Below, piece after piece: positions 1-49,403 of a DNA stretch of 64,000 bases (positions are counted from its first letter, which is position 1; every line of letters starts with the position of its first letter). The notes below the pieces were generated by a model. The model was given only the letters and a program-made list of their open reading frames with translations. It was not told the DNA's origin and made no database searches. The stretch comes from Cenococcum geophilum (taxonomy: Eukaryota). The position numbers and the translations under genes were made by a program. The stretch is taken from positions 22,010,001 to 22,074,000 of the forward strand of contig CP158635.1 of assembly GCA_050273025.1 (NCBI GenBank). Reading direction: 5' to 3'.

Positions 1-2799
1 GAAATACTATAAGTATAGTAAAAAGCTATTAGAGTATATAGTATAAAACTATAAAATAGAATTAGAACTAGGAATAAGTCTAAGATTTTTATAATTTATA
101 AGCTAACTAAAGAAGAGTTAAAAGTACTTAAAGAGTTTATCTAGGAGAATCAATAAAAGGAATATATTAGACTATTATAGTTATTAGCGGGTCATCCAGT
201 ACTATTTATACCAAAGAAGAACGGGAAAACTTAGGTTATACATTAACTATAAGTAGTTAAACAGTATTACTTAGAAGGATAGATATCCTTTACCCTTAAT
301 TAGTAAAATCTAAAATAAGATAAGTAATACGCAAATCTTTATAAAGATAGATCTAAAATAGGCGTACTATTAGATTAGGATTAAGAAAGGTAATAAATAA
401 AAGGCGGCCTTTAGGTTAAAGAAAGGACTATATAAGCTATTAGTTATATAATTTAAACTTATAAACGCACTAGTAATATTCTAAAAGCAAAGTAATAATA
501 TATTAAAAGAATGCTTAAATAAATTTGTTATAGTATACTTTAATAACATTATTATCTACTTAATAAGTAAGGAAGAATATAGAGAATATATTAGATAGGT
601 TTTAAAGAGACTATAAAAGGAGCAAATACTAGTAGTAATTAAGAAATGCGAGTTCTTTACAAAAAAGAATTTTTTTATTAGATTTATTATTAAACTAGAT
701 TATATTAATATAGACCTAAAGATAATTAAAGCTATAGTAAGTTAGCAAGAACTAGAGAATATATTATAGTTTAAATTGTTTCTAGCGTTTTATAACTACT
801 ATAAAAGGTTTATTATATAATAGTTAAAGAATATTAAGCTATTTATAAGGCTTATAAAGAAAGAGAAACTATAGGTATAAGGAAATAAGCAAAAGAAGCT
901 ATTTTAAAAACTTAAGGAATTATTTACCTAGGAACTAATCCTTAAAATATACTAACTAAAGTTAGAGATAGTTATAGAAACGGATATATTAGACTTTATA
1001 CTTAAAGTATATTTACTATAAAAGCACTAAAACATATAGTATCTAGTAATATACTATAGTTAAAAGATAATACTACTAGAGTTAAACTATAACATTTATA
1101 ATAAGGAGTTATTAGGTATAGATATAACACTTAAAAAAAAGAGTATTCTTATAAGGCATAGATAAACTATTTATAGATAAGATAAATTATAAAAATCTAA
1201 CGGGGTTCCTAACTATAAAAGAATTTAACTATAAATAAGTTAAATAGGTAGAGATGCTTACAGAATACGATTTTAAAATTCGGTATACTAAGGGCATAGA
1301 AAATACAAGAGCAGATATACTAAGTAGAAAGGCTAAATTATAGGACAATAAAAAGCTATTAGGGGCTATATTACGAAAAATAAAGACAGATTAATTAAGT
1401 ATAACTATCTAAAGATATAATAACTTAGGAAGAATGGACCTATAAGGTACTAAAGAGTATATAGTCTTAAAAGATCTAAGAAGTATAGGATAAGGATTTA
1501 GACTTAGAGTAATATACGTACTAAAAAGTATTATAGAAAAATTTATTAAAGATTTCTATAAGGGAATAATATAAGGATATAACGGAGCTACGGGCTTAGT
1601 ATTAAGACTCTAAAAGAAGTATATTATTTAAGGAATTTAAGGCTTAACAAGATAGGTTATAAAGGAATATATAAATTATTAGAGAGATAAACTAATAAGA
1701 TATAAGCTATATAGAGGGCTACAACCTATTAAAATACTAAAACGCCTATAGGAGATAATATTATAAGACTTTATTATAAAGTTGCTAAAGTTAAAAAACC
1801 CTATTACTAAATAGGCCTACTTTATAGCATATATAGAAGAAATCTTAGCAAAAGATATTGCTAAAATCTATATTAAGGAAGTGTTTATAAGATATAGAGT
1901 ATTAATAAAGACTATATTAAATAGAGATCTAAAATTTATAGTAGTATTTTAAGAAGTATTTTTTAGCGAAATAAGGGGTTTGCGTAATAATATTAACGGC
2001 ATATTATTTATAGACGGAAAGTTAGACGGAAAGATTAAACTAGACACTAGAATAGTATCTAAGGTACTATATTAATTATATATAGAATAATTAGTTATTG
2101 CTATTACTAATTATATAGTTTATATATAACGCAACACTATAAAAAGGAATAGGTATATTATTATTTAGGGCGAATTACGGATATAAACCCAAAAAAAAAA
2201 TTACTATAATAAGCAAAAAAGATAAGTAGTATAGCTAAGTAAAAATAGAGATATTAATAAGTCTCTATATAGACTTCTATAGTATAGCAAAATTAGTATA
2301 AAAAAGAATAAAAAGGTACTATAATGCTAAGAGATCCAAGGGACTAGATCGAAAGGAGGGGGATAAAGTGTAGCTACTATGTAAAAATTTTAAGAGTTAA
2401 TAACTAAGTAAGAAATTAAACTATATTAGACTAGGACTATTTGGAACTATAGTAAAGATCTTAGAAGTTATATATAAGTTAAACTTACTAAAGAAAATTA
2501 ATATCTACCCTATATAGTATATCGCGATACTAGAGCCAGTATATAGAAATATTAAGCCACTAGTTTATAAAGCAGATATATATAGAGAATAGGAAGAAGA
2601 CGAATAGGATATTTTAAAAATGGTTAGTTATAAGGATATTAACAATAAAATATAGTATAAAGTTAGATAGATAGGCTATAATAAGACTACTTAGAAACTA
2701 CTATAGAATGTAAAGAATACTATAGGAAAGGTAATAGAGTATTAAAAGAAAATAGGTTAGGGAGCATTAATAAAAAAGGATTGCTAAAGAATAAGCTAC

Positions 2800-3475
2800 C
2801 TAAAGGGGACCTAGGAGGACTAGCTACTAAGATATTTAGAGTTATTTCTCTCTTCATTAGAATAGAACCCTTTTAACCTCCTCCTACTTAAGTTTAAGGA
2901 GACCCTACTTAGCTAAATAAAACTCCTTTAAATAAAACTTCTTATAAAACTTTTTAAGACGGGACAACCGAGTATAAGCAGTTAGTCGAGCATTAAGTAT
3001 TTAAGACTCTTTGGTATAAAGACGCTAAAACTTAGCTAGAGTATACTCCTATTTACTATATAGATAATCTAGATTACTATAGGCTAAGGAGAGTTAGTCT
3101 TTTAGCTTTTTAGCGGCAGATTAGATCTAAGACCCTATAATAAATTAGATAAGGCATTAGACACCTATAGAGAATAATAAAACGCGTATACTTAGTATTA
3201 GAGACGGATTAAATATTGCAAAATAATCGCATATTCGCTTATATATATTTAGTATATAAAAAAGGTTAGTAACTAGATAAAGCCGCGATTATAATATATA
3301 CTAGCTTCTTCTCTATATATTAAAAATAGAATAGTATAATTTTACGCTAGTAAAGAATTAGCTACCTAGCTTATTAATAAGTCTACCGTAGTATTTTATA
3401 TAAGGCTTTATTATATCCTAGATATAAAAATAAGCGTTTATTTCTAAATTAGGTAGTAGTCCTAGTAGTAGCTAT
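2800..3475 (-). pseudogene. RIP-degraded antisense accessory gene of Gypsy A: Zn2Cys6-like domain plus coiled coil, one 55-bp intron (3189-3135)
   Basis: A single minus-strand frame from ATA (ex-ATG) at 3475 reverts to ..EIMP.CSRC.EKKLVC..IAA.SGRQPSSCAECTQANMRSSCDVRSVSDAE/W. The intron reads (G>A)TACGC..TCTAAT..TAG, and exon 2 is rich in L/E/Q/R heptads. The 3' end is approximate. Confidence 0.65.
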
Positions 3476-3542
3476 ATTTATTCCTTATATACGCTACCCT
3501 TAGGTCTAAAATTAAACTTAGGAGGAATAAGTATATAGGTAA

Positions 3543-3589
<47 letters not shown>
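3543..3589 (+). repeat. (GATA)n microsatellite
   Basis: About 11 perfect ATAG units. Confidence 0.95.
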
Positions 3590-3706
3590 TCTTAGGGTAT
3601 AGTACACATATATAGAAGCAAAACTAGTACTCTTACCTCGCAATAAAATTGCCTACTAAATTAAGTAGTAAACCCTTAGTGTAAGGGGACTTTATATATA
3701 GGGGGC

Positions 3707-3896
3707 TATAAGGACACGATTGTAGAACAGTATAGATTAGTAAGAGAGATAAATCCTTAAGAAGGTAAGGCCTCTAGGATTGTAAAGACTATATACTATA
3801 GGTATATACCTTTAGTACGTAACTAACGGACGTTTAAGGGGTGTCTGGGGGTTGTCTTAAGGGCAACCTAAGGTAACCGCAATAATATCCCTTATA
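3707..3896 (-). repeat. 3' LTR of Gypsy family B copy 1 (190 bp)
   Basis: Ends TATAAGG...CCTTATA (RIPed TGTAAGG...CCTTACA). A minus-strand polypurine tract AAGAAGGGGGAGCAA lies directly adjacent at ~3897-3911. Confidence 0.65.
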
Positions 3897-4220
3897 TTGC
3901 TCCCCCTTCTTATAGTTGGCCCCTAATCGCTATTACCTTATAGTAAAGGGAGATTATAAGGGCTCGTCCTGAAAGGGGTTTAGAAAGATATTAAAGAGAT
4001 ATTGGTATACTGCTATATATTATCTATCTATCTAACCCCTACTTTAAACTCCTAAAAAACCTTAATAAGGAAAAAACATAACTAGAGAAAAGACGTAAGG
4101 ATTGCTAGAAAACCTATTAGAAGCCTATTAAAAGTATACTAGTAACTACCTAGGCTAATATAGGGATTTTTATATAACTTTACTTCTAAGCCTTTATGCC
4201 GGTCTATAATTAATTATAAG

Positions 4221-7200
4221 CGATATAAGACACTGCTCAAATCAAGACCAAATAAAATGCGCAAACTGCCACCGAAGCACACATAAGGCGTGGGAGAGAG
4301 AAGACTGCATTAAATACAGGAGACGGAAGGCAAGGGCTTAGCAGCTGCGGGAATAACTGTACGCTAGGTTATACGAATAGAAATAATAAGTAATAAGCTA
4401 GGGGGGTACAGGTGCCTTTTTAGCGTTTCCTACCTTTAATACTAGGGGGCTAGGCCAGCTATCCCAAGCCTTAACGGGCTAGAAGCGACGCCGCGCGACA
4501 TTACCGGACCGTATAGGGTCATAAGGGTCACAGGGGACACAAGGGAGAGGACGCCCTGTAGGAAGACCCTTATAGACAGCTACAGCAAGCTTAAGACCAG
4601 GATAATTAAGAATTAGACTTAACGCGGCAAATATAACATTCGTAGCCGACTCTTAAAGGGTATATAGCTAACCAGTAAGAACAGGGGAAGAACTGGAGAT
4701 AATAATAGATTTAGATATAGAAGCGCTAGTAGAAACACAAGAAATAGGAATAGAAAGCTCTATATAAAATAAGTAGTAACTAGGGTGCAGACATAAGAGA
4801 CAGAAGTTCTAAATATCCCAGAGAAAGTAAAAATAGAAGAAGTAAGGAATAAAGGAAAGGCAAAGGACCCTTGCCGGGGGTCCGCCACCTATCTATTATA
4901 TAGTACAACTGCGGCAATACAAACCACCGTCTAGCAAGGCCCTTACTAGACAGTTTAGACCTAGAAAAATACTATATCCTTACTATATAAGAGCCGTATT
5001 ATAATGCCTATATATAATTAATATACTGCCCCCAAGGATTCCAGCTCCTATATAAACTAAAAGTAGCCATACGCGTGTACTTTATAATTAGTAAGGCTAT
5101 CAGCCTATCCTTATAGTTATAGCAGGCAGTTAACCTAGATATTATAGTTATAATAATCTAGACATATAGGGGACCGGTATAGATTATTAATGTGTATAAC
5201 TCTAGGGTTAAAGGGGTCCTATAAATAGAGAATATTATATTAGTAATAAGCTTACTAGAAACCAAAGGTATAAAGTTTATCCTATTAGGAGATATAAACC
5301 TCCACTACCCGCAGTAGGGGGGTATCTATATTACTGCTAAACAATAGGTAGAGTGCCTACTAAAAGCTATAGATATCTAGGACCTTAAGCTAGCTACCCC
5401 CCTAGGAGCAATTATATAGCAATAAGGCACCACTAAAAGTATAATTAACCTTATATTTATAGACGAAGGCCTATACTAAAGACGTAAAAGGTATAACCCT
5501 AAAGAAGAATAAGTACTCGCTTTAGACTGTATCCCTATCTAGATATAGCTAGATCTAGATATTAAAACGCAACTAAATAGCAAAAGATATGCAATAAGAA
5601 AGCTTAAGACAGACAGCTTCCTTAATATAGTTAAATAATAACTTTAAGACCTAGAAGAAATCTACCCAATACTAAATAAGTAAGGCTTATTAGCTACCCC
5701 TAAGGAAATTAACTAAAGACTAGAAAGGATCTAGGCAGTAATTAAAAATAGGCTAGAAGAGTACTACCCGGTCTTAAAACCGGGCCCCTATACGTAATAT
5801 ATATAGTCCGCACAATACATAATTCTTATCGCTAGCTAATAACGAGCAAGAAGAAAATATATAAGTAGCTATAACCCTAAAAATAAGAGACGATATAAGG
5901 ATATAAGAAACCAGTTAAAGAACACCCTAAAAAAAGAGGCAAGAAATAACTGGAGACGGTTTATAAATAAGCACACTTTTAACCTAAGTCTCCCCTATAA
6001 TAAGGGCCTTTAGGCTATAGTAAAATAGGTAAAGAAAAAGGCAGGGCGCCTAGCAGAAGACCTATACCTACCGCCCCTATAAAGAGTAGGGGAATTATAG
6101 GCCACTAATAATAACGATAAAAAGGTAAAGATCCTTATAGAAAGGTTCTTCCCCTAACCGGCTCTAGCAGACCTTAGTAATATTATAGGTAAAATACCAG
6201 TAACTTACCTATAGGTTAACAGCGATATAACAATAGGGGAAATGGCTAGAACTATTAGCCGCCTTTTAAATAATATAGTACTAGGACTAGATAGGATTCT
6301 AAATAAGGCCTTAAAAACCTATAGACCACTTATAGCACCCTAGCTTATAGATATAGCTAGAGTATGCTTTAGTATAGGCTATTACCCGCAACTTAGAAGA
6401 TCTATAACGACTGTTATCCTATAAAAAGAAGGTAAAGTAGATTACTTAATCCTAGGAAGCTACCGCCCTATTACCTTAGAAAACACCCTTAGCAAGATTT
6501 TAGAAAAGGTAATAGCGGACTATATAGTAGACACTGCTAAAAAACACGCCCTACTACTATAAAGCTAAATAGGGGCAAGAAAGAACCGCTTAACACTATT
6601 AGCACTTACGCTACTCGCTACCACCATTAAATCTGCATAGGCGATATAAAGGGACTTTATAGTATTAATACTCAGCCTAGATATTAGTGGCGCCTATAAC
6701 AACATTCCCTATAAGCGTCTCCTATACATCCTTAGGGCAAAAGGCTTCCTAAAATAGATTATATAATTTATTTAAGGGTTTATAGGTTAGAAAGAAATAT
6801 TACTAGTCTTTAACAGATACCAGAGCCCCTCTATTACAGTTACAACAGGAATACCATAAGGATTACCCCTATCGCCTATACTCTTCCTTTTCTTTATAAG
6901 TAACCTGCTTAACTTCTTTAAGAAAGGGGCAACCTAGGGGATAGGCTTTATTAATAATATAAACCTAATTATATACGGGCTAATAGCTATAGAGAATTGC
7001 AGAACACTAGAGAAAGCTTATAACACCTATATAGAATAGGTAAGATAATATAGAGTCTAATTCTTACTAAAGAAATACTAGCTAATCCACTTTATAAGAA
7101 AACGCAACTAATCTACAGATCTCTAGCACATAATTTACATTTAAGGCTTTAGGGGTTAACTAGTCTAGGGCTTAAGGGTACTAGGAGTATAGGTAGATAG

Positions 7201-9152: not shown

Positions 9153-10100
9153 TAGAGGCTCTGCATAAGGCTCTACACAAAGCTCTGCACAAAGCTCTGC
9201 ACAAAGCTCTACACAAAGCTCTGCACGAAGCTCTATACAAAGCTCTATACAAAGCTCTGCGCGAAGCTCTACACAAAGCTTTGCACAAGGCCCTACACAA
9301 GGCTCTACATAAAGCTTTGCACGAATTCGTGCACAAAGCTCTACACGAAGCTCTACACGAAGCTTTGCACAAGGCTCCACACAAAGCTCTACACAAAGCT
9401 CTGCGTACAGAGGCTCTGCACAAGGCTCTGCACGAGGCTCTATACGAAGCTCTACACGAAGCTCTACACAAAGCTCTACACAAAGCTCTGCATAAAGCTC
9501 TGCACGAAGCTCTACACGAAGCTCTACACAAAGCTTTGCACGATGCTCTATACAAAGCTCTACGTACAGAGGCCCTATACAAAGCTCTACACGAAGCTCT
9601 ACACAAAGCTTTACACAAAGCTTTATACAAGGCTCTACACAAGGCTCTACACAAAGCTCTACATACAGAGGCTCTGCACAAGGCTCTACACGAAGCTCTA
9701 TACAAAGCTCTATACAAAGCTCTACATAAAGCTCTACACGAAGCTCTGCACAAAGCTCTACACGAAGCTCTGCACAAAGCTCTACACGAAGCTCTACACA
9801 AAGCTTTACACGAGGCTCTACACGAGGCTCTATATAAAGCTCTGCATATAAAGGCTCTGCATAAGGCTCTGCACGAAGCTTTACACGAAGCTCTACATAA
9901 GGCTCTGCACAAAGCTCTACACAAAGCTCTGTATAAAGCTCTATATAAAGCTCTATATAAAGCTCTGCATAAAGCTCTACAAAGCTCTACACGAAGCTCT
10001 ATATATAGAGGCTCTGCACAAGGCTCTACGCGAAGCTCTACACGAGGCTCTACGCGAAGCTCTACGTACAGAGGCTCTACACAAAGCTCTACACAAAGCC
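9153..10100 (+). repeat. 12-bp minisatellite (CAC[A/G]AAGCTCT[A/G]) with interspersed 15-bp units
   Basis: Directly visible tandem array. It generates the HKAL/HEAL/YKAL ORF and the overlapping CRAL and YTKL ORFs. Confidence 0.97.
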
Positions 10101-10922: not shown

Positions 10923-13900
10923 CGCGCTATTTATTTATAGGGTAGCAAAAAGCTAGCATTAGTTTGGTGGTTGAGCGTTTTGCTACAATTTGCTAGCAGA
11001 AGCTGCAAATTTGTTGCGAAACGCGCGGTTTGCGCGAATCGCTAACGACTATATACGACCACGCAAATCGCATAGTTTGCAGCAAATTGCCGCAATCTGC
11101 AACAACGCGCCCAAAAAAAAATTTCCTGATGTATTTAGCGTAGCTCTACTGCCTAGTAAATAGAGATACTTCGCGATAGCAACTATAGGCTATTATACGA
11201 TTATTAAGAACGTCTATAACGTTAATCTTTAATACTATAATATTGTTTAGGTATAATTTAACCTATATACATCTTTAATTAACGTCTTAAATACTTCCCC
11301 CTAGCTATATAATTAGTTTTTTTATAAAGAAGTAATAGCCAAATAGCTTATATACATGTTTCCTTTTTTCTAAATAGCGCTATTATAACAGAGTTATATT
11401 GGTAAGGTTACGGCTATTTACTAGAAGGGTATTGGACGGTAAAGTATAAAGACACTTTATTTATTAAGTTTAATACTTTTCCTTAACACCTTACTTCCCA
11501 TTATTAACCTTTATCTAATTTAGACGTATCTTTAATATATTATTAAAAATTTCTTCTTTTTTATTATTAATTTAATATACCTTTTTAATCTTCTACTAAC
11601 TACTCTTCTAAGAAAATTTCATAGCGTATTTTAGCCCTACCTTTATATATAAAACCCTAACCTTTACTAACTTGTAACTAGTGCTAGTTCTACCTAAATA
11701 ATTTTGCCAATATATCTTTAAAAGACTAGAAATCTAATAATAGGGTTCTAGAGGCTTATAATAAGACCTACTATATAAGGTCTAACACCTTTAGTCCTTA
11801 TAATTAATATATATATACTAAGAGCGGTAATTATATTAAGGTAAGCTTTTCTACCCTTAATAGATTTCTATTATTAACTTTAAGCTTTAATAGCCTGGGT
11901 CTAAATGGCGACGTTCCTTTAATATCTTTAACTACTATATCGCCTAGGCTCTCTTCTATTTAAGTGCTAATACTAAATATCTAGGTTAAATTTAAGATTA
12001 TGCCACAGCCGTCTATACCACCTATAACTTTTAGTAAGCTAGCTAGTAGCGCCTAATATATAAGTAAGGTTAGTATATTAAGGATAGGGTAAAGGATAGG
12101 GGCGATAAAAAGAAGGTCGCCGTATACTATAAGAAGGAGTTTATATATATACGTTAAGTTTTAAAAGAGCATAATATAATACGTTATTAGGTAGGTTACG
12201 CCTTAGGTACCTAACGGATAGGTAACTAACAGTTACTATAGTAAGGTCTTAGTGGTTTTAGACTATACCAGCTATCTAACATCTTTATTTATTCTAGGCT
12301 TAAGTGCATCTTTATTAACTATAAGCTAACACCCTAAGAGCTTTATTAGTATTATTTTGGACCTAATATTAGTATTAAGCGTTTAAGAATCTCTGCTCTT
12401 ACTACACCTTATTATCCTACCCCTGTTTTTATACCTACTTATATACCTATAAAGGGATCTTATTTCTATTAGCCGTACCTTAAAGGGCTAATAGATACTA
12501 ATCCTAATCCTAGGGATAAGGTATAGTGGCTTTTTAGATTAGGTATTTTAGATTTATTCTTATATATAGTAGCAATTAAGGACCTTAATTAGGTGCTTAA
12601 AAAGGCCTTATAAGGCTTTTAGAAAGGGCTTAAAAGCCTTAGAAATAAAGTTTTTAATATAGATTAATAAATAGGAATGCAATTCTAGCAAAATGCCCTA
12701 TTAACTCTATAATATATACTTGAAAAGGCTAAGGACCTATTCTGCCTTAAGCTGTAGCCCTAATCCTTATAGTTTCTAGAGCCTATCTATTCTATATCTA
12801 ATTTAACCTATTTACTCTTTGGGGCCCCTTACGGCCTACTATAAGCTTTCTTTATAGGTCGCAATAACACTATAGTATTAAAGCGCTTTTTATAATTTAT
12901 AGATTATAGACCTTAGTCCTAATATTCTTTTAGAATATCTTTATAATAATTAAGGTAATCATCTGGTTCCTATATAGAGTCCTTAGCGGGCTAGCCTAGC
13001 TATTTAAATTTATATTAAAGCTTATTCTTAACAGACTTATAGTATAGTATAGCTTTAACCTTATACCGCTCGCCTACTACCTTAAGGTATTTAATTAGGC
13101 CTAGACGGAAGTTCTTTTCTAGCGGTAGTCTATACTATAGCTCTAGTAGGTTTATATAAAACATTAGATATATATAGGCTATAGATAGGGGTAGCTAGAG
13201 ACGGTAGGCTAGCTTACTAATTTATTCCTTAACTTAGAAGAGACCTAGGTATCTTATATTAAGCTTTTTTAATAGTTAATAGGTCTTAATATTTGTTAAA
13301 TGTAATAGAACTTTATCGCCTACTCTAAAATGATTATCCTAGTATTTACTGCTCTTAAGCGTTTTATAGGCTCTACTTTATATACTTTTATTACTCCTCC
13401 TATTCCTAAAGGTACCATTATACTTTCCGGTAAATATCCTTAGACTTTTTAGTAGGATCCTATAATTAATTATACAGCCTTAGCTAGTAATTACTAGGTA
13501 TACTATTAAATCTAAATAGTTAGACGCTATAGGCAATCTAGATTGGTGTATACTTATATAATACGTATTGCTTTAAATTATAAGTATACTCCGTATATAG
13601 AAGTAGCTTATACTAGTTATCTTACTAGTAGTTTAAATATATTTATAGGTAAGACTCTAGTTCCTAGTTCTAGCATTCTATATACCCATCCGTTTATAGA
13701 TAAAAGGCTATACTATAATAGCGGTCTATTTTTAAATAGAAGTATAGGTCTAACTAGTACTGGCTTATAAAGACGCTGCCCCTGTTAGTAATAATAGAGT
13801 ATAGCTAATCTACTTTAAGAAAGTATTTCTCCTTAATTAGGTTAGTAAGCGCTTATATATTAATCGTCTTATTAATAGGAAAATATTAGACGTACTTTAA

Positions 13901-19494: not shown

Positions 19495-19503
19495 ACGTTG
19501 CGC
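19495..19503 (+). promoter_or_regulatory. Putative self-priming primer-binding site of family C
   Basis: ACGTTGCGC lies 2 nt after the 5' LTR and is the exact reverse complement of GCGCAACGT at 19430-19438 in the LTR. Confidence 0.65.
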
Positions 19504-21184: not shown

Positions 21185-21224
21185 GGAAAACGCTAAGTCC
21201 TAGCCCTAAGTCGTAGGTTGGGAC
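21185..21224 (+). promoter_or_regulatory. Putative gag-pol -1 frameshift signal (GGAAAAC plus stem-loop)
   Basis: GGAAAAC, a 5-nt spacer, then stem GTCCTAGCC/GGTTGGGAC. The same arrangement occurs in C1 at 17944-17983, between the gag knuckle and the protease. Confidence 0.55.
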
Positions 21225-33569: not shown

Positions 33570-36500
33570 ATTAGGAGGCGATACTAGTATAAGGGATAAC
33601 GACTTATAGGTAGTTATAATAAATTAGCTTAGGAGTATTATGGAGTAGAATAACGCTAATAACTAAGTACTGCTTTAGCAACTATAAGATATAAAGAAAA
33701 AAAAAGATTAAGATGCTATTAATTAAAAGATTTACAGGAGAAAAGTATAAGCTTAAGAGATTCCTTATATAGATGCGATTAAAGATTCGGTATAAAGGAA
33801 CTAAGTTAAAGCAATTAGCGGATTAAGTGGCGTATGTAGGGTTAGGCGTTGGGGTGGTTTAAACCTTATTTTATAGAGATATAAACTAATAGATTAGCCA
33901 CTACTAACTTAGAGGCGTAGTATATATTCTTAAGCTAGGAGGGATTTATTAGTAGACTAATATAAATATACGGGAATCCGGAATTAGTAGCAATAGCTAT
34001 AAAAAAAAAGCTATATTAACTTACGTAGAAGGGATTAGCAATAGACTATATAACGTAGTTTTAGATACTAGCGGTATAGACTAAGTAGAACTAAGGGGCG
34101 TTAATAGCTTAGTATAGAAGGGGACTAAAGGCCAAAGTTTAAGTAACTATAATATTAATAGACGATCTAAGCAATATAATAGAATTAATTAAATAAGCTA
34201 TTAGAGTAAATAACTAGCTATACTAAAGCGAGAGGTTAGGGAGAATATAGTATGGACCGGTGTATATAAAGAAGATATAACAGATATCTAGGCTATAGTA
34301 TGGCGTAGAGCTAATAGACTTAAGTAGTGTTAAAAAAGCAAAGAACTAAAATAGAAGACTATAAAAACCTAGAGGATAAGGATTAAGTAATTAAAGGTCT
34401 AAGGAGTAGAGGCTAAACCAGAGATTTTAATAGCAGAAGACGTTTAGGCAGACTCTATAGTAAGAAAAGTAGTATAAAGAAGGAGTTTGCATAAACTACG
34501 GAAAATAGGGTTATTTTTCTAGAGACTATAGAGTTGGTTAAAACTACGCAGTAAAGGGAATAAGACTACTTAGCGATATATATATATATATAGAGGGACG
34601 ATAATATGCTATAAGGAACAAAGGAATATTTAATTAAGAGTTTTACGTTTTGCTATAATAACATATATTAAGTTTATAAAGACGCTAAGTATGGCGTAAG
34701 CTATTAGCTATAAGAGCCTAAGTTAAGAGGACTCTAAGGTATAAGAGAATTGGATAAAGAAGCAGACTAACTCTACGAACTAGATTAGGACAAAGATAGT
34801 ATATTTAGCTAGCAGTTAGTAAAAAAAGTTCTTACGTACTAGTTCTATAAACAAGTAATAGAATTTAAGGATTAAGACAATTAGACTATTAGCAGTAATA
34901 ATAAGGCAATAAAGGTAGCTTACTAGGTGTATATAAACCTTAAGGATACAATAATAGAAGTAGATGTTAAATCTGCTATAGAGAAAGGATTAATAATAGG
35001 TATTAAAACTCTATTAAATACGGTGTCTATCGCTTCGCGAGACGCAAAAAAAGTAGAATAGTAAGCTACTTTGGCACTTAATAAAGACAAAAGGCTAAAG
35101 GGTTAAGATTCTTAAGACGAAATAAAAGACGCTTAAGATTCTTAAGATAAGATAAAATATACTTAAGGACCTATAATAAACAAAAACCAATAGAGTAGAG
35201 TAGTAGCTTAGTTTAAAGATAAACAAATAAGTATAGGAAGAAAATTCTAAGGGATTTAAGATTTTAAAGAATAGATAAGAACTATATATAAGTTTAGTTA
35301 AATTAAGGCAGGAGCTTAGCTTAAGAAAGAAGCTAGCTTAAAACTAAAGTTTTTAGGGAATTAGGATTTTAAAGAACGAATAAGGACGCCTATAATAGGT
35401 AAATAAAGTATTTAGCCTTAAAGTTAAGTAGTTAATACTAGAATTACAAAAATTAAGGATCTAATAGATTTAATAGCTAGACGCAAACTAGGAGAAGACT
35501 AAGAAGGATTTAAGAGTTAAATTAAAGCGTAGTAAAAATAAAGAGGTTACTAAGGACTTAAGATGCTAGGTAAACTAAGGGATAGAGCACCTATATAGGA
35601 AATCACTAATAGGCCTAGAGTAGGCATGCCATAAGTAAAATAGCTTAAAAAACTAGAATAAGAGGAGGATTTAGGAATTCTAACTAGGTTTAAAGAATAG
35701 TATATAAAGGGCTGTTATAATATAGTAATAATAAGATACTTCCTTATGGACAGATTATATACGCTTATAGAACTATACTAAAAGTAGTATAAATAGCAAA
35801 ATAGCGACAACAAAGAAGACTTTTATTAATAGCTAGACTAGAAAGTTATCTAAGATTAAGTAATTATAGAGAGACGTATAAGTTATATTAAAGGAGCGCT
35901 AATTATAATATCTAAAAATCTAGAAGAAAGATTAAAGGACTAGAGATATAGAATATAGAATATAGTATCTATAAATAAAAAGCCAACGTTTAAATTAAAT
36001 AGGTAGAGGTTTAAACTTAAGGATAAAGATAAATAAAGAGTTAACCTAAAACACCTAGTGTATTATATATTAGAATAGAATATATATATAGATTATATAT
36101 ACAATATATATAAGAATCTAAAGAAAAAGAAGAATTAGAAGCAACTTATAAGGATATATTAGGCGCCAAATAAGCGATAGTATAGAAATACTAAGTATAT
36201 ATATAGCTAGCATCTAGTAAAAGTCTAGGAGTTAGATAACTTAATACTTTAATTAAGAAAATTTATTACGGAAGAATGCTTAAACAAATAATAGTAGTGG
36301 GAATGTCTAGAGAATATATATCTATAGTATATTAAGGACAAAAAGCGAACTAGGTAGTAGCTAAAAAGTAAGCTAAGTATAATAGAATTAAATAGCTAAT
36401 AGTTAGAAAAAGGAGAGGTTTATAAAACTAGAGGGAGCTAGTAGTAAAACCTTAGACCTTTAAAGGAATTTAAGAATAATACTTAAATTTAATAGTTAAT

Positions 36501-39269
36501 TAGTAAGATTAACAGTTTAAAGTATTAATAGATAGTAGAGTAATAAGAAACTATATCTTACTAGTAGCAGTTAAGCGGATAGGATTACCTTATAGGTAAA
36601 AGAGGCACCCTTACCTATTAGTTATAATTTTAGGAGATCTAATAGCCTATAAAGGAGGTATTATTAACCTTAAAATAGGACCTATTTAGATAACTATTAA
36701 AGAAAAACGAATTAAGATATATTTTAATATCCTACTATTAGGACGGGATAAGGTAGTATTAGGTATGCCTTAGTTATAGAAATACAATCTAAAAATTAAT
36801 TGGGTTATAGGTTAAGTTAATATTAAAAATACTTAGCGAAGTAAGATATAATAACAGAATAAGATAGTATAGTATTAAGTTAGAGTAATATATAAAGAGA
36901 CTAAGTAGAGCTTAAATTACGTATTAAAGAGATACTATAAGTATAGTAAAAAGTTATAGAGCCCAAAAAGTAAAAAGCTATTAAATTATATAGCGTAGGA
37001 CTATAAAATAGAATTTAGAACTAAAAATAAGTCTAAAGTTCTTTCTAATTTATAAGCTAACTAAAGAAGAGTTAAGAGCACTTAAGGAGTTTATTTAAGA
37101 AAACTTACAAAAGGGATATATTAGACTATTATAGTTATTAGCAGGATATCTAGTACTATTTATACTAAAGAAAAATAAAAGGCTTAGACTGTATATTAAC
37201 TATAAATAATTAAATAACATTACTAGGAAGGATAGGTATTCTTTACCCTTAATTAGTAAAATCTAAGATAGAATAGGTAACGCGCAAATCTTTATAAAGA
37301 TAGATCTAAGATAGGCGTACTATTAGATTAGGATTAAGGAAGGTAATAAATAGAAAGCAGCCTTTAGGTTAAAGGAAGGACTATATAAACTACTAGTTAT
37401 ATAATTCGGACTTAAGAAGAATACCTTAATAAGTTTATTATAGTATACCTTAATAATAATAATATCTACTTAATAAGTAAGGAAGAATACGAAGAATACG
37501 TTAAATAGGTCTTAAGAGATTATAAGAAAAATAGATACTAGTAGCAATTAAAAAATATAAGTTTTTTTAATAAGGAAGACCGATCTTGTTAAATTTATTA
37601 TTAAACTAGGCCATATTAATATAGACCTAAAGAAAATTAAAGCTATAGTAAGTTGGTAAGAACTGGAGAATATAATATAGTTAAGATTATTTTTAGGGTT
37701 CTATAACTACTATAAAAGATTTATAGCATAATAGTTAAAGAATATTAAACTATTTATAAGGCTTATAAAGAAGGAGGAACTATAAATATACGGAGAGGAA
37801 CAGAAAAAGTTATTTAAAAAACTTAAAGAACTATTTACCTAGGAGCCAATTCTTAAGATCTACTAACTAGGACTAAAAACGATTATGGAAATAGATGTAT
37901 TAGACTTAATATTAGGAGTATACTTACTATAAAAGTATAGGAACGCATAGTATCTAGTAGTATATTATAGTTAAAAGATAATAATAAAAAGAACTTAACT
38001 AAAGGCAGGTTAGATAGGTAGAAATACTTACAGAATACTATTTTAAGATTTAGTATACTAAAGGGACAGAAAATATAAGAGTAGACGCACTTAGTAGAAA
38101 GGCTAAACTATAAGATAATAAAAATCTATTAGGGGCAATGCTATAGAAAAATAGTAATAGATTAATTAGATATAATTATCCTAAGATTATAGTAACTTAA
38201 AAATATAAGCTACTGGAAAGTAATTAGATTAGGAGAATCTAAGAGGCATAATCTAAAAATCTGTATATAGAGTAGTATAAGAGTTAAGAAGTAATATATA
38301 TATACTAAAGGGTATTATAAAAGAATTTATTAGAGATTTTTATAGGGGAATAATATAGGGATATAATGGAGCTATAAGCTTAGTATTAAGACTCTAAAAG
38401 GAGTATATTATTAATAGAATCTAGGGTCTAGTAAGGGAAGTTATAAAGAAATATTTAAATTGCTAAAGGAATAAGCTAATAAGGTATAAGCTATATAGAA
38501 AGCTATAGCCTATTAAAATACTAGAATATCTATAGGAGACAATATTATAGGACTCTATCGTAAAGTTGCTAAAGTTAAAAGATTTTATTACTGGATAGGA
38601 ATATAATATAATCCTAGTAATAGTAGACAAGTTAACTAAATAGGGCTACTTTATAGTGTGTGTAGAAGAAATCTTAGTAGAAGATATTGCTAGAATTTAT
38701 ATTAAAGAAGTATTTATAAGATATAGAGTATTAAGTAAAATTATATTAGATAGAGACTGTATAATTACAGCACCTGTTGTACTAACCACGTACTTACGCG
38801 TCTAGTGCACTCCTGAAACACTAGCTAGTTAGGGGGGAGGTGCGTTAGTATATAGACTATGTAGCCCACCTTAATAGAACCGATAGTTACCACCGTCTAA
38901 ATAAGCATACGATACTATACGTATTTCGTGCCCCTAGATACGACCCACTTATACCATTAAATTGGTACCGACACTGATTAGTGAGCGCGCACAGATTAGG
39001 AGATACGCACTTGCTTAGAAGACGTCCAACGCTCTACTTTGTAAGCCCCTATTTCAGTTGAAGAGAATTAAAGTACTCTAGATTTGGAAGACGTTTGATG
39101 CTCTACCTTACCTAGAATTACTTTAAATCTACCCTGGTTTTGGAAGACGTTTACGCTCCACCTTAATCAGAGATATTGACTACTGTACTAGTAGTTAACG
39201 CAACCACGTTAAGAACACGATTACACTAAGAACGCGACTACTACACCCTACTAAAATACCCCGGCCTCC

Positions 39270-39475
39270 TCTCTGACCCCTTATGGAGACCTCTTACCCT
39301 TTTACGAACCGTTACGGACCCGTTAATTACTTTTACGGACCGTTACGGAGACCTCTTACCCTCCTGTGAACTACTATGAACCTATTAAGACCCTACGGAG
39401 ACCCCCTTACCCTTCTATGAACCGTTATGGGCCCGTTAACCGATTTTATGGACCCTTATAAGACCTCTTCCACCC
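39270..39475 (+). repeat. Degenerate ~55-60 bp tandem repeats in the Copia 5' leader
   Basis: Recurring GGAGACCTCTTACCC...GAACCGTTACGGACCCGTTAA, about 4 copies. Confidence 0.7.
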
Positions 39476-42400
39476 GCTATATACTATACTACACTACACA
39501 GTATGGCAGATATTAGTAAGCAGGTTAATGAAGGTTAAAAGAAGTGGAGACAAGGAGTTGACGTTACGTCTATAGATGACGTTAATAACTATATTAAATT
39601 TAAAATCCTTAAGTACGAATACTTTAAGCTTATGAACGTTGACCTATGGGAGTAATACTAGGAAGACTTTGCGGACTTTACGGAAGCCATCTTTAAGGAA
39701 TATAACCCCACTACTATCTATAACCTACGGACCCTTTTACATAACTAAGGTGTATGGGTTAAAAGGAATAAATGGGTTACTGTTGTACGGTCCTTGTATA
39801 ATATAATATATAAGGAGGACCGAACGGAATGGACTAAGGAAGAAATCCTAGATAAGTATAACACTACTAAGGAACTCTTTGCTTTTTCTAAACTTAATGT
39901 AATCGCTAGCTTTATACCTGACCCTCTTAACTAAATTCGTCCTATAAACCTAAGCAGTTTTAGAATTGATTTTACTGGCTAAAGTACACCTAGTACTTAT
40001 GTTACGGACCGTAATACCCCCGTAACCTAAATTATAGACTGTAATACCCCCGCGAACCAAAATACGGACCAAACCCCTCCCGTTGTTTAAACTACAGACC
40101 CGTAACCCATATATCCGTAACCTATAAATCCGCAAGCTATAGACCCGCAAACTACCTAAGTAAAGACTTATGGTAAGGAGCTAGCTAACCTAGCTAAGCT
40201 CTACACCGACGAATCTAAGTACAGCGGTGAAAACGATAACTTTGACTTTAAACTGACCATCTTTACGGACCTCTGTTAGAAGGCCGATATTCCTAAATAG
40301 GAGTTCAGCCAAGCCTACTCTATTATGCTGCGCGGCTTAGTACTTGACCACTACTATACCAACCTTAAGAGTAACCCCCTTGGTGTTCCCTTTAATAAGC
40401 TATGCGAAGCCATATATAACTACTTTAAAGGACCGGAATATAGGCGTGATATCCTTACCTAATGGAATGCGACTAAGTTACGGACCGTAATGGATAAGAA
40501 TACTGAAAAATTAACTATAGAGTGCCTACAAATCCTTATTAAAGACCTCCGCCACCTATAGCACGGTCTTAATATTAAGCTTTAAACGGACGACTTCTTG
40601 TATAATAAACTGATTACGGCCTACTAGGAAATGGAACCCTGCAAATACGCCTGTTATAAGCCCGCAGACACCGTAGCTGGCCTTATTAACGATTTACGGT
40701 CCTCTATTATAACGTACAAAGCCTTAAACCCGCTAGGTAGTACTTAAGCTTTTATTACGGACCTGCAAAATCCGCAACCTAATTTAGATGCCTACTTTAC
40801 GGACCGCCGATACCGCCAGTAGTATCCGTATTGACTAGGCTCTACCCGCAACCTCCACAGCAACTCCCGTACGAAAGTATACCCCCGCAGACGAACCAGT
40901 TAGAAGTGCTTTGTGTGCGGCAATAAAGGATGTTGGTCTATAAGGTATATCTAGGAAGAACGTAACAAGTCTAGGAAGAGACTTAATAACTGGATTAACC
41001 AGTTTATTTTGGAATATAAAGGAGAGGAAGTAGAGGAGCCCCCTAACGAGTTAATAGAAGCCCTTATAATTAACTTTAACTTAGACGCTTAGGAATAGGA
41101 GACCTTAGAGACATTCCTAACTACTTTTGGACCTTTTACGGATAGTTAAGCCTTTAATACTATGACCGTATTAGCCGACCGCTCCTTTATATACTTAATT
41201 ACACCCGAAAACTGGCCTGTAAGTATACCCGTTGGACCCGTTACGGATATTACGGACCGCGAATAGGATTTATTTGCATATATTACTACAGAACGCTATA
41301 CCCCTAAAGAATTCTATGGCGTTATAATTGATATAGGTGCCTCTAAGAAGTCTACTATAGGTTACGGATAATACCTTGTATATAAGACTACCGTAAATGA
41401 TAATACGGACATTAACACTATGCAAGCTAGGGCTGTAAACGTCTAATTTGGCATTAGTTTAACCGCATTAATTAGATTAGTCGCAGTTAAGACCCTAATT
41501 AGCCTAGTTGACTTCCACATAGTAAAAGCGGACACCCCTTTTTTACTCTGTCTTGCAGATATGGACAGGTTATAGGTCTACTACAATAATATTACGGACA
41601 CCTTAACTAGCCCCGCAACTGCCCTAGGAAGTAAGTATATTACCCTACTAATTACACGACGATTTGGACACCCGTTCCTTATATAGGGAGAGACTTTACG
41701 GACCTACATTTAGGAATCTTTTGACTATAACCCGTGCTACCTTACTAGTACTGAAATCCACCGTTTGCACCGCTGTTTCGGCCACCTGTTAGCCGAAAAG
41801 CTATATAGAGTTCTTAAATGCTCTGGACATGACGACGTTAATAGGAAGGCAATTAACCACCTAATTAAATACTGCTCTTTTTGCCAGAAATACGGACGTT
41901 CCCTAGGTAGATTCAAGTTTACCCTTCGTAAGGACCTTAACTTCAACCACTTAGTGTACGTAGATATTATATACATTAACGGCAGTCCAGTATTACATAT
42001 AGTTGATGAGGCAACCCGCTATTAAGCCGCCCGTTGGTTGCAAAATATATCTATAAAATATACTTGGGACATTTTACGGACCTACTAGATTAACATATAC
42101 CTTGGACCCCCTGAGTATATTACCTACAACGCTAGTAGGAACTTCATTAGTAAGGAATTCCAACAGTATGCTATGGCTATGGCTATTTTAATAAAAGCCG
42201 TTCTAGTTAAGGCGCACTGGTCCGTTAGACTTATTAAGCGAGCTTACCTAGCTTTATAGAGAGCTTACTAGATTATTACAGATGAGTGTAAGAATATCTA
42301 AAAAGAACTGGCTTTATAGATGGCCGTAAAAGCCGTTAACAATACCGCTAGCCCTAACGGATTGGTACCTACCCTCTTAGTCTACGGAGCCTACCTAAGG

Positions 42401-44494
42401 ATGAGCAAACTGGACCCTCCTGCCCCGTCCGTTACGGATTGAGCAGCTATAATACGGAAGGCAATGGCCGAAATAGTCAAATTACGGGCCAAACAAACTG
42501 TTAATAACGCTCTGTACTACTGTAACGGACTTAATATAACCCTAGTATATAACCTCCCACTTAACTCTGAAGTCCTCGTGTGGCGTGAAAGCGGCAATTG
42601 GACTGGACCTTACCGTCTACTGGCCGTAGAAGACGAGACCTGCTGTGTATAGCTCCCTAGCGGACCGACAAGCTTTAGAAGCACGTCCGTAAAACCCTAT
42701 TTTCGGTCTAAAAACATCTATAACGTTAAGCTAGATGAACCAGAAGCACCCGCCGAATTAGATAAACTAGAAGCACCCTTACCTACCCTAGAGGTCCCCC
42801 AGAAACCCAATGAACCTGCGGAACCTGCTATAAAGCGTGGCCGAGGACGCCCCTATAAGAACTCTATAACGGAGAATTATCTAACCTCCGCAGGCACATC
42901 CGCAAAGCAATCTCCGCCTGTGGATATATTAGTTTTAGTATAGGAAACCCCTTTTATGGACTTATGACGCAAAGAGATTAACGGACTACTTAAGAAGGGC
43001 GTCTTTACGGTTATAACGGAGAGAGACGTTCCATAAGGCGTCCGTATATTTAACTCGCGCTTTATTAACGAAATTAAGCACCCTAGTACTAACAAAGCCT
43101 TTAAAAAGTTAAGGCTCGTCGTATAAGCTTATAACGACTAGGGAAAGGACCTCGTCCTCACGCAATCGCTTATAATTTAACGGGTTAGTTAACGGATCAT
43201 ACTTACGCTTACGCTGGGACTACAGCAAACTAAACCCATAGCCCTCTACTTATGGGACATCTTATAAGCCTATATATAGTCCAACACTTACCTAAGTAGG
43301 GACATCTTTATACGGCCACCGCTTAAGCTTAATCTGTAACTAGGAACAATTTTATAGGTTATAAAACCACTTTACGGAGTACCGGAAGCTGGAAACCACT
43401 GGTTTAAGATGTATTACTAGCACCACGTCAGTAAACTTAAGATGGAGCAGTTAACCTATAACCCTTGCCTCCTATATACCCTATTAAACGGCCTTAGCAT
43501 CGTTAGACTCTAAATGGATAATACCCTCTTTCTAGCGGACCAAACTTTTGCGGACGCGGAAGAGACCGAACTGTAAGAAGCCAAGTTCCTAATAAAGCCG
43601 TAAGAGCAGTTAACTAAGCGGACTTTAATTAAGTTTAACGGAGGCTTAATTATATAAAAGGGCAACTTAATCTAGCTAACTTAGGAACGCCAAGCTTAAA
43701 ACCTAAAGCCCGTTACGGCAAAGCCTATGGACCTTACTAGTTCCCATAGAGAGACCCATAAGACCGTAAATACAAAGGACTAATACGCTGTATAGCGTGT
43801 AAGAGGTGCCTATATCGCCACAGTCTGTTAACCCGAATCTGCCTACGACTTATCCTTTGCGGCCTAGGTAGTAGATCCGCAAGAAGAAAATGTTAAATAG
43901 CTTAATAAGCGCATCCAATGGCAAATTGATAATGCGATAAGAGGACTTACTTTTGTACCGCTAGACCTAAATTCTATTAGCGTAATGGTATTTACGGACG
44001 CCTCCTTTACTAATAATAGGGACCTATCATCGTAAATTGGCTTTGTAATTGTACTTATGGACTATAACCAAGACGTAAATATACTGCATTGGTCTTTAAT
44101 TAAATACAAATAAGTAACCCGCAGTGTACTAGCTTCTAAACTATATGCACTAGCCCATGGCTTTGATATAGCAGCCGTAATCAAATTAACGATCCAGAAG
44201 ATCCTATAATTGGAGCAGCTACCCCTGGTTTTATATTCTGATTTAAAGTCTCTCTACGACTGCCTAGTTAAGCTAGGTACGATATAGGAGAAGAGACTTA
44301 TGGTCGACCTAATGTGCTTACGTTAGGCCTATGAATGATGTGAGATTACGGAGGTTAAATGGATTACTAGCGGAGATAACCTAGCAGACGCCATAACTAA
44401 GGCAAAGCCGTGTTAAGCTCTTAAGACCCTAATTAATATAAATAAACTTAACCTAAAAGTCATAGAATGGGTAGAGCGAGACTAACGGAGCATT

Positions 44495-44605
44495 TACGGT
44501 TTAGTTACGGCCCGCTGGAAGGCCGCACGGTTTATTTATGGCCCGTTAAAAGGCTGTATAGTTCATTTACGGCCCGTTAAAAGGCCGCATAGTTTATTTT
44601 ACAGA
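44495..44605 (+). repeat. ~31-bp tandem repeats in the Copia 3' UTR
   Basis: TTTACGGCCCGTTAAAAGGCCGCATAGTT-like unit, 3 copies. Confidence 0.75.
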
Positions 44606-46340
44606 CCGTAAAGCAGGGCTTACGGCTAGCTTGGGGCACTGTTTGGAAGGCAGCCTAGAGGGCACCTTGGGAGGGATTTCCTATATATTTTCTTACCCCT
44701 TTTATGGTTCTATTGAGGCAATTACGGAGGCTATACACAAGTGGTTCCATTTTCTAAGTACCGCTAGTATATAATTATAGCACCTGTTGTACTAACCACG
44801 TACTTACGCGTCTGGTGCACTCCTGAAACACTAGCTAGTTAGGGGGGAGGTGCGTTAGTATATAGACCACGTAGCCCACCTTAATAGAACTGATAGTCAC
44901 CACCGTCTAAATAAGCATACGATACTATACGTATTTCGTGCCCCTAGACACGACCCACTTATACCATTAAATTGGTACCGACAGAGACTTAAGATTTATA
45001 GTAGTATTTTAAAAGGTATTCTTAGCGGAATAAGGGGTTTGCGCAGTAATATTAATAGTATATTATCTGCAAACAGATAGATAAATAGAGAAATTAAATT
45101 AGACGCTAAAATAGTATTTAAGATATTATATTAATTACAGATAGAATAATTAGGTATTGTTACTACTAGTTATATAATTTATATATAATGCGATACTATA
45201 GAAAGGCATAGAGATATTACTATTTTAGGCAAATTATAGATATAAGCCTAGAATATTATTATTATTACCATAATAAGTAAAGAAGATAAGTAGAATAGTA
45301 AAGTAGAGAATAAAGACTCTAATAAATCTTTATAAGGACCTCTATTTTACAGCAAAAATAGTATAAAAAAAATATATAAAAAAGTACTATAATGCTAAAA
45401 GATCTAAGGGACTAGATCTAAAAGAGGGGGATAAAGTATAGCTATTATACAAATTTTTTATAAATTAACGACTAAGTAAGAAGTTGGATTACGTTAGACT
45501 AGGACTATTTAAAATAGTAACTAAAATTTTAGAAGTTATATATAGACTTAACTTATTAGCGAAGATAAAGATCTACCCTATATAGCATATTGCAATACTA
45601 AAGCTAGCGTAGAAAAATATAGAGCTATTAGTTTATAAAGTAGATATATATAAAGGACAAAAGGAAGATAAATAGTAGGTTTTAAAGATTATAAATTATA
45701 AGAATATTAACAATAAAATATAGTATAAAGTAAAGTGGGTAGGCTATAATAAGACTACCTAGGAACTACTATAAAACCTAAAAAAGGCTATAGAAAAGGT
45801 ATAGAAGTATTAAAAGAAAAAGGGTTAGGTAATATTAAGAAGAAGCTAAAGGTAAAGGGATTAGTTAAAGGTAATAAATAAGCCGGGTTATCTAAGGGAT
45901 CCACTACTATCATATAAGTTATTTCCGCCTCTTTTTAATTAGAATCATTTTTAGCCTCTTTAGCCTTAGGTGTTATAAAGTAAATATAAGCGACAATAAT
46001 ATATAACGAGGTAGATATTATTAAGCTATATATATAAACTGTATAATAAGATCAAGACGTTATATAAGGAAAGAGGGTAAGAAAACGGGAAGAAAGGGTA
46101 TATATTATTAGCTTAGTTGCTTAGTTAATATATATATAGAGCAAAATAGGATTTAGGTAGTAGTCCTAGCAGAACTTAGCAGGATTTAGTAAAATTTGGC
46201 GGAATATGGCAAAATATAGCAGATTGCCGTTAGATTGCCATAGATTGCCATTAAATTGCCGTCTTATAGTTGGTCTTTAGTTACTAAGTTAGTAAAAATA
46301 GGTAGATGTATATAAGGTGTTACGGGAGTGTCCTATAATC

Positions 46341-49272: not shown

Positions 49273-49403
49273 TCTACTAGCTGCCGTTTTAGTGCCTCCT
49301 TAGGTAGGGAGGATGTAAGAAAGGAAGGAAGGGTAAAAAATAAGGCGGCTATATAGGTAGAGATATATATAGAGGCTATTAGGAATATAGCGGGGACTTA
49401 ATA

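Follow-up and report, generated by a model that had tools for sequence, protein, structure and literature searches.

An RIP-mutated antisense gene with Zn2Cys6-like cysteine spacing behind the pol gene of a Gypsy retrotransposon in Cenococcum geophilum

Introduction

Whether a Gypsy retrotransposon of the fungus Cenococcum geophilum carries a spliced gene on the strand opposite pol is the question raised by a short piece of contig CP158635.1 (assembly GCA_050273025.1). The whole stretch that was analysed, 64,000 nucleotides at positions 22,010,001 to 22,074,000 of the forward strand, is called the window here. It consists of AT-rich fungal repeat DNA with a GC content of 0.24-0.43, altered by repeat-induced point mutation (RIP). 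About 900 bases separate the pol gene of a Gypsy element from a long interspersed nuclear element (LINE, a non-LTR retrotransposon; LTR, long terminal repeat), and the antisense remnant discussed below sits in these bases. A preliminary description, made from the letters alone, had proposed that the Gypsy element carries here an antisense gene with an intron, Zn2Cys6-like cysteine spacing and a coiled coil. Antisense extra genes in this position are already known from plant Gypsy elements and from Boty of Botrytis.

The presence of a spliced antisense gene with such cysteine spacing and a predicted coiled coil is supported by the analysis. The proposal as a whole is partly confirmed: its core holds, and the start codon, TATA box and 5' untranslated region (UTR) that it had assigned to the gene were wrong.

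Results

An antisense gene remnant behind pol

The six codons that had been read as former cysteines were found on the minus strand as described, in the order TAT-x2-TAT-x6-TAT-x13-TAT-x2-TAT-x8-TGC (positions 3328-3326, 3319-3317, 3298-3296, 3256-3254, 3247-3245 and 3220-3218). The intron-like segment of 55 nt at 3189-3135 was also as described, beginning with ATACGC, with CTAAT 14 nt before its end and TAG at the end, and its excision yields a TGG (W) codon. By comparison with relatives, positions 3361-2720 of the minus strand are an RIP-mutated, 5'-truncated and frameshifted copy of an antisense Gypsy gene, with these parts:

3190..3361, minus strand: exon 1 remnant, from about codon 18 to codon 74, with the six-cysteine (Cys6) domain
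3135..3189, minus strand: intron of 55 nt, its donor GT mutated to AT (ATACGC), with CTAAT and a TAG acceptor
2720..3134, minus strand: exon 2 remnant, coding for the predicted long helix (coiled coil) and the acidic tail; stop codon TAG at 2722-2720

Over its last 50 or so codons, exon 2 shares its DNA with the 3' end of pol, which is on the opposite strand.

Relatives and an intact copy

The stop-masked frame of 3475-3136 was searched with phmmer against 1.84 billion representative sequences and gave 48 matches with E<=1e-3, the best of them at 5e-13 with 51% identity. These are short predicted proteins rich in Tyr, Ile and Leu, that is, RIPed copies elsewhere; many begin with MPP, MPK or MPR, and they have Cys at differing subsets of the six positions. 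A profile made from them found 580 proteins of 31-350 amino acids (aa), none of which has a Pfam domain, and found none among proteins of 351-2000 aa.

A scan of JGI metagenome contigs gave 16 loci. In blastn, L001 (window 3339 to 1258), L003 (3345 to 50) and L004 (3361 to 2001) match the window contiguously from the gene into pol, as do L007, L008 and L011 from about 3345, while L005, L006, L010 and L016 match piecewise.

The locus L002, a contig of 7546 bp with a GC content of 0.48, is an intact copy that has not been RIPed. It has an open gag (Retrotrans_gag, Ty3_capsid and zf-CCHC) and an open pol (RVT_1, RNase H, Integrase_H2C2, rve, SH3_Tf2-1 and Chromo), and on the strand opposite to both, exon 1 reads MPP..SCSRCAEKKLVCVAIAAPSGRQPSSCAECTKSNMRSSC..SVSDAE. 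The last 277 bases of the contig give, on that opposite strand, MPPIRSSLSDRRNRLVTTILSLGVIMPSCSRCAEKKLVCVAIAAPSGRQPSSCAECTKSNMRSSCNVRSVSDAE followed by GTGCGT...CTGAC...GTA at the contig end. The first bases of the contig are GTAG and then GG TCT CGT..., in a frame that stays open for 127 codons to a TAG; this exon 2 contains ..ARLTRLERVREKVRSKEWRLAEQGLRELELEEAKK.. and terminates with ..DPFVFGSFSMLPDPFSSDTLVPFP. We infer that the contig represents one element collapsed on its LTR, the GTA being common to both ends. When the two halves are joined on the shared GTA, the antisense gene is free of stops and its intron (GTGCGT, CTGAC, TAG) has 55 nt and lies at the same place as that of the window. 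The antisense ATG would lie about 110 nt inside the LTR edge, which was placed from L002 alone; a repeat search found no LTR pair in L010. The strings that the preliminary description had obtained by reverting RIP (EIMP.CSRC.EKKLVC, SGRQPSSCAECTQANMRSSCDVRSVSDAE and LAEQGLLELEQEE) are very near to the L002 sequence.

Three other features of L002 were observed beside the gene. The pol frame (2-387, minus strand) is open for about 118 codons past the chromodomain and spans all of the antisense exon 2, so the overlap of the two genes may extend far beyond some 50 codons, or the open pol tail may be incidental. The polypurine tract of the element lies at 7162-7189; in antisense it is a block rich in C and T that precedes the antisense ATG by about 80-110 nt, and it appears as runs of SSSSS or SLSLSLK in RIPed predicted proteins. 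At about 7020-6960 (Gypsy orientation), in the putative LTR, tandem GGGAACGT repeats and then repeats of ACGTAC type lie upstream of a TATTTAAGG box.

Cysteines, splicing and linkage across copies

Each of the six positions has a Cys codon or the Tyr codon that RIP makes of it in all 15 aligned sequences, and all six have Cys in L002, L012 and L013, so the TGT or TGC codons expected from reverting RIP do exist in other copies. The GT donor is likewise present in other copies (5 of 15), with the RIP product AT in the remaining 10. The acceptor is TAG in 11 of the 15, TAA in three and CAA in one, and a CTRAY branch site stands 14 nt before the end of the intron in nine. The intron measures 55 nt in six sequences, 54 in one, 64 in two and 133 in four, and is disrupted in two; the lengths 55, 64 and 133 place the 9-nt and 78-nt insertions within the intron.

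Without splicing, the frame of L002 meets a stop 12 codons past the acceptor. In L001, L003, L004, L007, L010 and L011, exon 2 is one frame off exon 1, so the two can be joined by splicing only. A search with the intact exon 1 also found two JGI/IMG proteins independent of each other, P0162 with 239 aa and P0163 with 152 aa, from contigs of 1.4 and 1.2 kb. Both read ..SVSDAEWSRV.. unbroken across the predicted junction. JGI/IMG gene calls are not known to model introns, and the unbroken frames therefore mean that these contigs lack the intron. Most simply, the two contigs would be transcripts.

The order exon 1, exon 2 and then pol on the reverse strand was found at all nine loci with enough downstream DNA (L001, L003, L004, L005, L006, L007, L008, L010 and L011). 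The count excludes L009, L012, L013, L014 and L016, whose contigs end early; in L015, exon 1 is followed by unrelated DNA. The position expected for homologues of the gene, antisense between the pol chromodomain and the 3' LTR, was thus found at these nine loci and in L002.

Decay and boundaries of the window copy

The copy in the window is a dead remnant and not a working gene. Its exon 1 has five stops in 57 codons, five of its six Cys codons are now TAT, and the start codon and first 17 or so codons are missing; tblastn of L002 exon 1 aligns to 3313-3191. Exon 2 is interrupted by 10 stops in 94 codons, and its frame shifts at least once; a change near 2830 is seen in tblastn, where residues 152-188 of P0162 align to 2982-2872 (frame -2) and residues 208-238 to 2815-2726 (frame -1).

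The start at the ATA of 3475, as first proposed, is not tenable. In blastn to the loci and in the DNA alignment, gene homology begins only at about 3361 or 3345, near codon 18, and a different fragment abuts the truncated exon 1:

3363..3421, plus strand: gag-upstream-like fragment

Within it, 3363-3408 matches L002 6785-6740 at 82.6%, a stretch that adjoins the gag start codon of L002, so the start codon of the antisense gene, the polypurine tract and the 3' LTR are missing here. A related piece lies elsewhere in the window, as L002 6789-6692 aligns to 29030-29127 and window 3363-3414 matches 29034-29085. The fragment is presumably the 5' UTR and primer-binding site of a Gypsy element. The AAG at 3408-3406, which MAFFT aligned to the ATG of the family, was considered as a remnant of the start codon and rejected on the same match to the gag-start stretch.

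The TATA box that had been assigned to the gene, TATATATAAA at 3700-3691, belongs to the 5' end of the separate LINE, which starts at 3682. The (TATC)n tract taken for part of a 5' UTR, to which nothing corresponds in relatives ahead of the gene, lies outside the gene and is a microsatellite:

3535..3589, no strand: (ATAG)n/(TATC)n microsatellite (Tandem Repeats Finder: period 4, 13.8 copies)

Similar tracts occur in the window at about 10.6 kb and about 48.8 kb. Rfam and tRNA scans of the 2800-3700 region gave no matches.

The predicted product

In L002, P0162 and P0163 the cysteines are spaced C-x2-C-x6-C-x13-C-x2-C-x8-C. The spacing range of Zn2Cys6 clusters (PROSITE pattern) is C-x2-C-x6-C-x(5-12)-C-x2-C-x(6-8)-C. 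In GAL4, basic residues between the second and third Cys contact DNA, and this loop holds basic residues here too, reading C-A-E-K-K-L-V-C in L002 and P0162 and C-A-K-E-G-L-V-C in P0163. The top Pfam match of L002 exon 1 is Zn_clus (PF00172; E=0.044, 14.3 bits, residues 28-66), which also scores 13.6 bits on P0163 and 8.1 on P0162, all below the Pfam gathering cut-off of 21. The score does not reach membership of the family, which is why "Zn2Cys6-like" is the accurate wording. As a lead and not a test, the nearest ESM Atlas cluster to P0163 is named 'Zn(2)-C6 fungal-type domain-containing protein' (ascomycete, 204 aa, score 0.90, 200 of 256 features).

The Cys domain is followed by a predicted long helix. 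An AlphaFold2 model of P0162 has it at residues 98-204 with a predicted local confidence (pLDDT) of 83-94, and places short helices just after C55 and C79, the first and fourth Cys. Two copies of P0163 were modelled together with four zinc ions, no alignment being used, and the homodimer scored 0.51 against 0.01 for the best of three controls. The mark for a dimer is one reached by 21 of 30 proteins solved as one-chain pairs and by 0 of 23 solved as single chains (for eukaryotes, 17 of 29 and 0 of 30). Between runs, 91% or more of the contacts agree, the partner has a pLDDT of at least 79, and the modelled interface runs along residues 76-150 with a spacing of 3-4. The tail of L002 is acidic, with six Asp or Glu and two Lys or Arg in 42 residues.

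Other repeats in the window

The remnant is flanked by the following two elements:

1..2874, plus strand: RIP-mutated Gypsy (chromovirus) pol, the 3' two-thirds, cut by the window start; reverse transcriptase, RNase H, integrase and SH3-like domains, with the chromodomain at about 2608-2754, placed by the intact relative
3682..7090, plus strand: LINE, its 5' end at 3682 and its true 3' end further right

With stops read as X, Pfam finds RVT_1 (E=2.9e-13) and RT_RNaseH_2 (E=4.1e-11) in 1..2874, and residues 118-1116 of the L002 pol align to window 2-2874 in tblastn. The 5' end of the LINE is set by a jump in DNA depth and by loose contig ends (runs X1, X5 and X22), and its domains are Exo_endo_phos_2 at about 5180-5482 and RVT_1 at about 6431-7090. 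Reads of the RNA-seq run X21 pile up at 3680-3763 to a depth of about 22 and run into GC-rich, unlike sequence before 3680. RNA reads also have loose ends at 3363 and 3421. The X21 reads at 3363-3421 and 3680-3763 are only 90-95% alike to the window, with unlike flanks, and so come from other copies. It therefore appears that the LINE 5' end is transcribed from other copies elsewhere.

A second copy of the Gypsy family was located by tblastn of the L002 gag and pol and by self-BLAST, with a second remnant of the antisense gene behind its pol:

33728..45957, plus strand: second Gypsy family copy, with gag at 33728-36438 and pol at 36579-38760 plus 44977-45957 (tblastn)
45794..45961, minus strand: second antisense-gene remnant, exon 2 codons 71-126

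The second remnant is 53.6% identical to residues 71-126 of L002 exon 2 (tblastn, E=1.1e-14). In the self-comparison, 36969-38766 plus 44983-45844 are 79% identical to the first copy. A nested LTR element at 38760-44983 interrupts the second pol; its 214-bp LTRs are 96.7% identical (self-BLAST), and it looks much younger than its host. Tail to tail with this copy, on the minus strand at 46792-47626, another Gypsy family has left a remnant of integrase and SH3 (Pfam SH3_Tf2-1, E=3.4e-8).

Further repeats fill much of the window. A 12-bp minisatellite, GCTCTACACAAA, has about 77 copies at 9158-10099 and an inverted relative at 48862-49578, and yields long open HKAL and CRAL repeat frames on both strands. 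Four tandem units of about 3.2 kb occupy 16005-28733, each bounded by a repeat of about 190 bp (16005-16195, 19298-19494, 25455-25646 and 28543-28733); they have weak similarity to Gypsy pol and resemble an LTR-internal-LTR array in tandem. Another large repeat family (11161-16003 against 48103-60896, 87% identical) lies downstream of both Gypsy copies at unequal distances, its second instance broken by insertions, and may be an old segmental duplication.

Discussion

The first question to be settled is whether there is a gene at all. Our initial reading was that the TAT codons had come to stand in this pattern by chance alone, in a spacer that is AT-rich and RIPed, and much of what the window holds by itself agreed with this. 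A loose family of spacings (x5-13 and x6-8, with Tyr or Cys) occurs four times in the window, compared with a mean of 1.7 under an order-3 Markov model, where 80% of 60 simulations had at least one. The minus-strand frame has 10 stops in 95 codons, which equals the background (10.6% over all six frames), the donor is not GT, and Pfam finds nothing on the six stop-masked frames of 2776-3702. Homology with the second Gypsy copy ends at 2777, and nothing else in the window matches 2800-3700 beyond a 52-nt piece and microsatellite tracts, both of these also after purine/pyrimidine collapsing. The summed DNA depth of contigs is about 10^5 on pol and drops about 1000-fold over 2840-3091, where it is about 200. 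This dip is better explained by the first half of exon 2 being the most length-variable part among copies, and by copies like the second one in the window, which lack most of the gene. An open "de-RIPed" frame can be had from any frame, as all three stop codons are revertible by a transition, and RIP-tolerant local alignment was too permissive to inform. What overturns the chance reading comes from outside: the 48 homologues from phmmer and 580 from the profile, the intact copy L002, and the conserved linkage of the gene to pol. It is because of these relatives and the non-RIPed copy, and not of the window alone, that the features stand above chance, and we regard the initial reading as refuted. 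It is also very unlikely that the antisense RNA itself is what matters, as a source of double-stranded or small RNA or through transcriptional interference, with the reading frame incidental. Regulatory antisense transcripts are discussed for LTR elements in passages of PMC7264820, and Botrytis Gypsy elements are described as major small-RNA sources in passages of PMC8365987. However, three diverged sequences without RIP (L002, P0162 and P0163) have an open frame of 150-239 codons, none of the six Cys positions is lost, exon 1 is free of the 9- and 78-nt insertions, which are in the intron, and the exons require the splice for their frame.

The second question, what the product does, is less settled, and a number of results weigh against an active, spliced gene for a zinc-cluster regulator. 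As to the copy in the window, it is dead, and in RNA-seq run X21 (of which about 12 in 100 were read) there were no reads on 2924-3343 and no joint of 3189 to 3135. Processed DNA copies, instead of transcripts, could be the origin of P0162 and P0163. For the Cys domain, the loop between the third and fourth Cys has 13 residues, one over the range given above (the other spacings are within it), the Zn_clus scores stay under the cut-off, and Pfam gave no Zn_clus row for P0061 or P0164. DUF3716 (PF12511) scores about as well, with 15.4 bits (E=0.018) on P0061 and 12.2 bits (E=0.18) on L002 exon 1, below its own gathering cut-off of 22. No significant zinc-cluster match came from searching PDB chains by sequence or by profile (PPR1, E=1.3), and weak C2H2 and LIM matches outscored PPR1. 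The AlphaFold2 model of the Cys domain has a pLDDT of 49.9 and so offers no evidence of fold. For the helix, the region after the intron, which had been called heptad-rich, does read ..ARLTAYTRLSRLKKFYKK..LAK*GLLKLK*EE, but a crude heptad test was not significant against shuffles. The P0163 chain that was modelled as a dimer is cut at its C-terminus, and its contacts pair residue i with about 230-i, which makes the model antiparallel; the coiled coil of GAL4 is parallel. Much of this would suit a real gene whose Cys6 domain is another zinc-binding or disulfide module, DUF3716-like for example, serving protein or RNA contacts (particle assembly, nuclear import, integration targeting or the blocking of host silencing) and not DNA binding. 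The comparable scores of DUF3716 and the lack of a zinc-cluster match among solved structures favour such a module, an antiparallel dimer would set the two Cys domains far apart, and DUF3716 proteins are encoded in the REP9 transposon of Zymoseptoria according to passages of PMC8232023. We consider it unlikely all the same: the first half-site, C-x2-C-A-E-K-K-L-V-C, fits the zinc-cluster pattern, including both lysines, the nearest ESM Atlas cluster bears the Zn(2)-C6 name, and an N-terminal Cys6 domain with a long helix and an acidic tail is the classic layout of a small zinc-cluster activator.

Our overall explanation, which we hold to be probable, is that an ascomycete chromodomain Gypsy family has a real accessory gene, most likely for a zinc-cluster-like regulator, of which the window holds a dead copy. 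The parts of this explanation differ in strength. The comparison of copies shows a conserved antisense gene that is linked to the element and interrupted by an intron, and we are highly confident that the gene is real and borne by the element. That its product works as a DNA-binding regulator is quite possible, though not to be counted on. In intact elements the gene lies antisense between pol and the 3' LTR, with its ATG about 110 nt inside the putative LTR edge. Antisense placement shields an intron during reverse transcription by an established logic, and the single 55-nt intron would survive retrotransposition because the sense-strand genomic RNA cannot splice it. The product, of about 200 aa, would consist of a short basic N-terminus, the Cys6 domain with K-K-L in its first loop, a helix some 100 residues long and a tail that is both acidic and hydrophobic. 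If the Cys6 domain folds as a zinc cluster and the helix pairs two chains as modelled, the result would be a dimeric, probably nuclear, DNA-binding protein, which may act on the LTR of the element itself or on host promoters.

A bolder and rather unlikely extension is that a widespread family of ascomycete chromodomain Gypsy elements carries its own GAL4-like factor, which binds LTR repeats or host promoters and activates the element or counters its silencing. Such a factor would be made from a spliced antisense transcript starting next to the 3' LTR. The GGGAACGT and ACGTAC-type repeats of the putative L002 LTR could, as a matter of speculation, be candidate binding sites for it. With every insertion, the regulator and its binding sites would then be carried together to further places in the genome, and such elements could be a source or a sink for the large expansions of zinc-cluster factors in fungi.

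The nearest precedent is brtn, a gene that Boty-like Gypsy elements of Botrytis and Sclerotinia carry in antisense behind pol and before the 3' LTR, as passages of four papers describe it (PMC7264820, PMC8365987, PMC4227169 and PMC5987419). Both are extra genes on the opposite strand, in the same place of an ascomycete chromodomain Gypsy element. The comparison is one of position and description alone, and the passages citing brtn state no Cys6 domain, intron or coiled coil. A variant is named 'brtn-106' there, and many unspliced open reading frames (ORFs) of the present family have 98 or 106 aa, which is a lead only.

Antisense ORFs between pol and the 3' LTR are also described for plant Gypsy elements (Grande with gene23, RIRE2, and Retand with TRP28) in passages of PMC7264820 and PMC11963269, with the same position and orientation. 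According to these passages they have their own promoter and are suspected nuclear or DNA-binding regulators, their function still being unknown. They differ from the gene described here in that their proteins are unrelated (TRP28 and others), the elements belong to non-chromovirus lineages, and the region from pol to the LTR has 2.9-6.6 kb, compared with about 0.7 kb here. A further likeness is found in REP9-1 and REP9-2, DUF3716 proteins in a class II transposon of Zymoseptoria tritici (passages of PMC8232023): a Cys-containing fungal domain is again encoded by transposon-borne accessory genes, and the weak match of the DUF3716 hidden Markov model falls on the same residues. Here the match is below cut-off, the carrier in Zymoseptoria is a DNA transposon, and the function of the domain is unknown.

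The Zn(II)2Cys6 factors GAL4 and PPR1 resemble the antisense protein in having six N-terminal Cys in two halves (C-x2-C-x6-C and C-x2-C-x8-C), a first loop with K-K-L, a middle loop with Pro, a long helix (predicted to dimerise in the present case), an acidic tail and an occurrence in fungi only. Unlike them, the antisense protein has a middle loop of 13 residues, a Pfam score below the cut-off and an antiparallel model; it has about 200 aa, is without the middle homology region, and is encoded by a retrotransposon and not at a host locus. A full-text literature search found no paper linking Zn2Cys6 to an antisense gene borne by a retrotransposon; the original brtn paper may say more.

To conclude, a real gene overlooked by ORF finders and Pfam can be recovered when a wrecked copy is read with RIP reverted. 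The recognisable layout of the product, with a Cys6 cluster, a helix modelled as dimerising and an acidic tail, makes zinc and DNA binding directly testable. If both were true, a common family of fungal retrotransposons would carry its own transcription factor, which would bear on escape from silencing and on the rewiring of host regulation.

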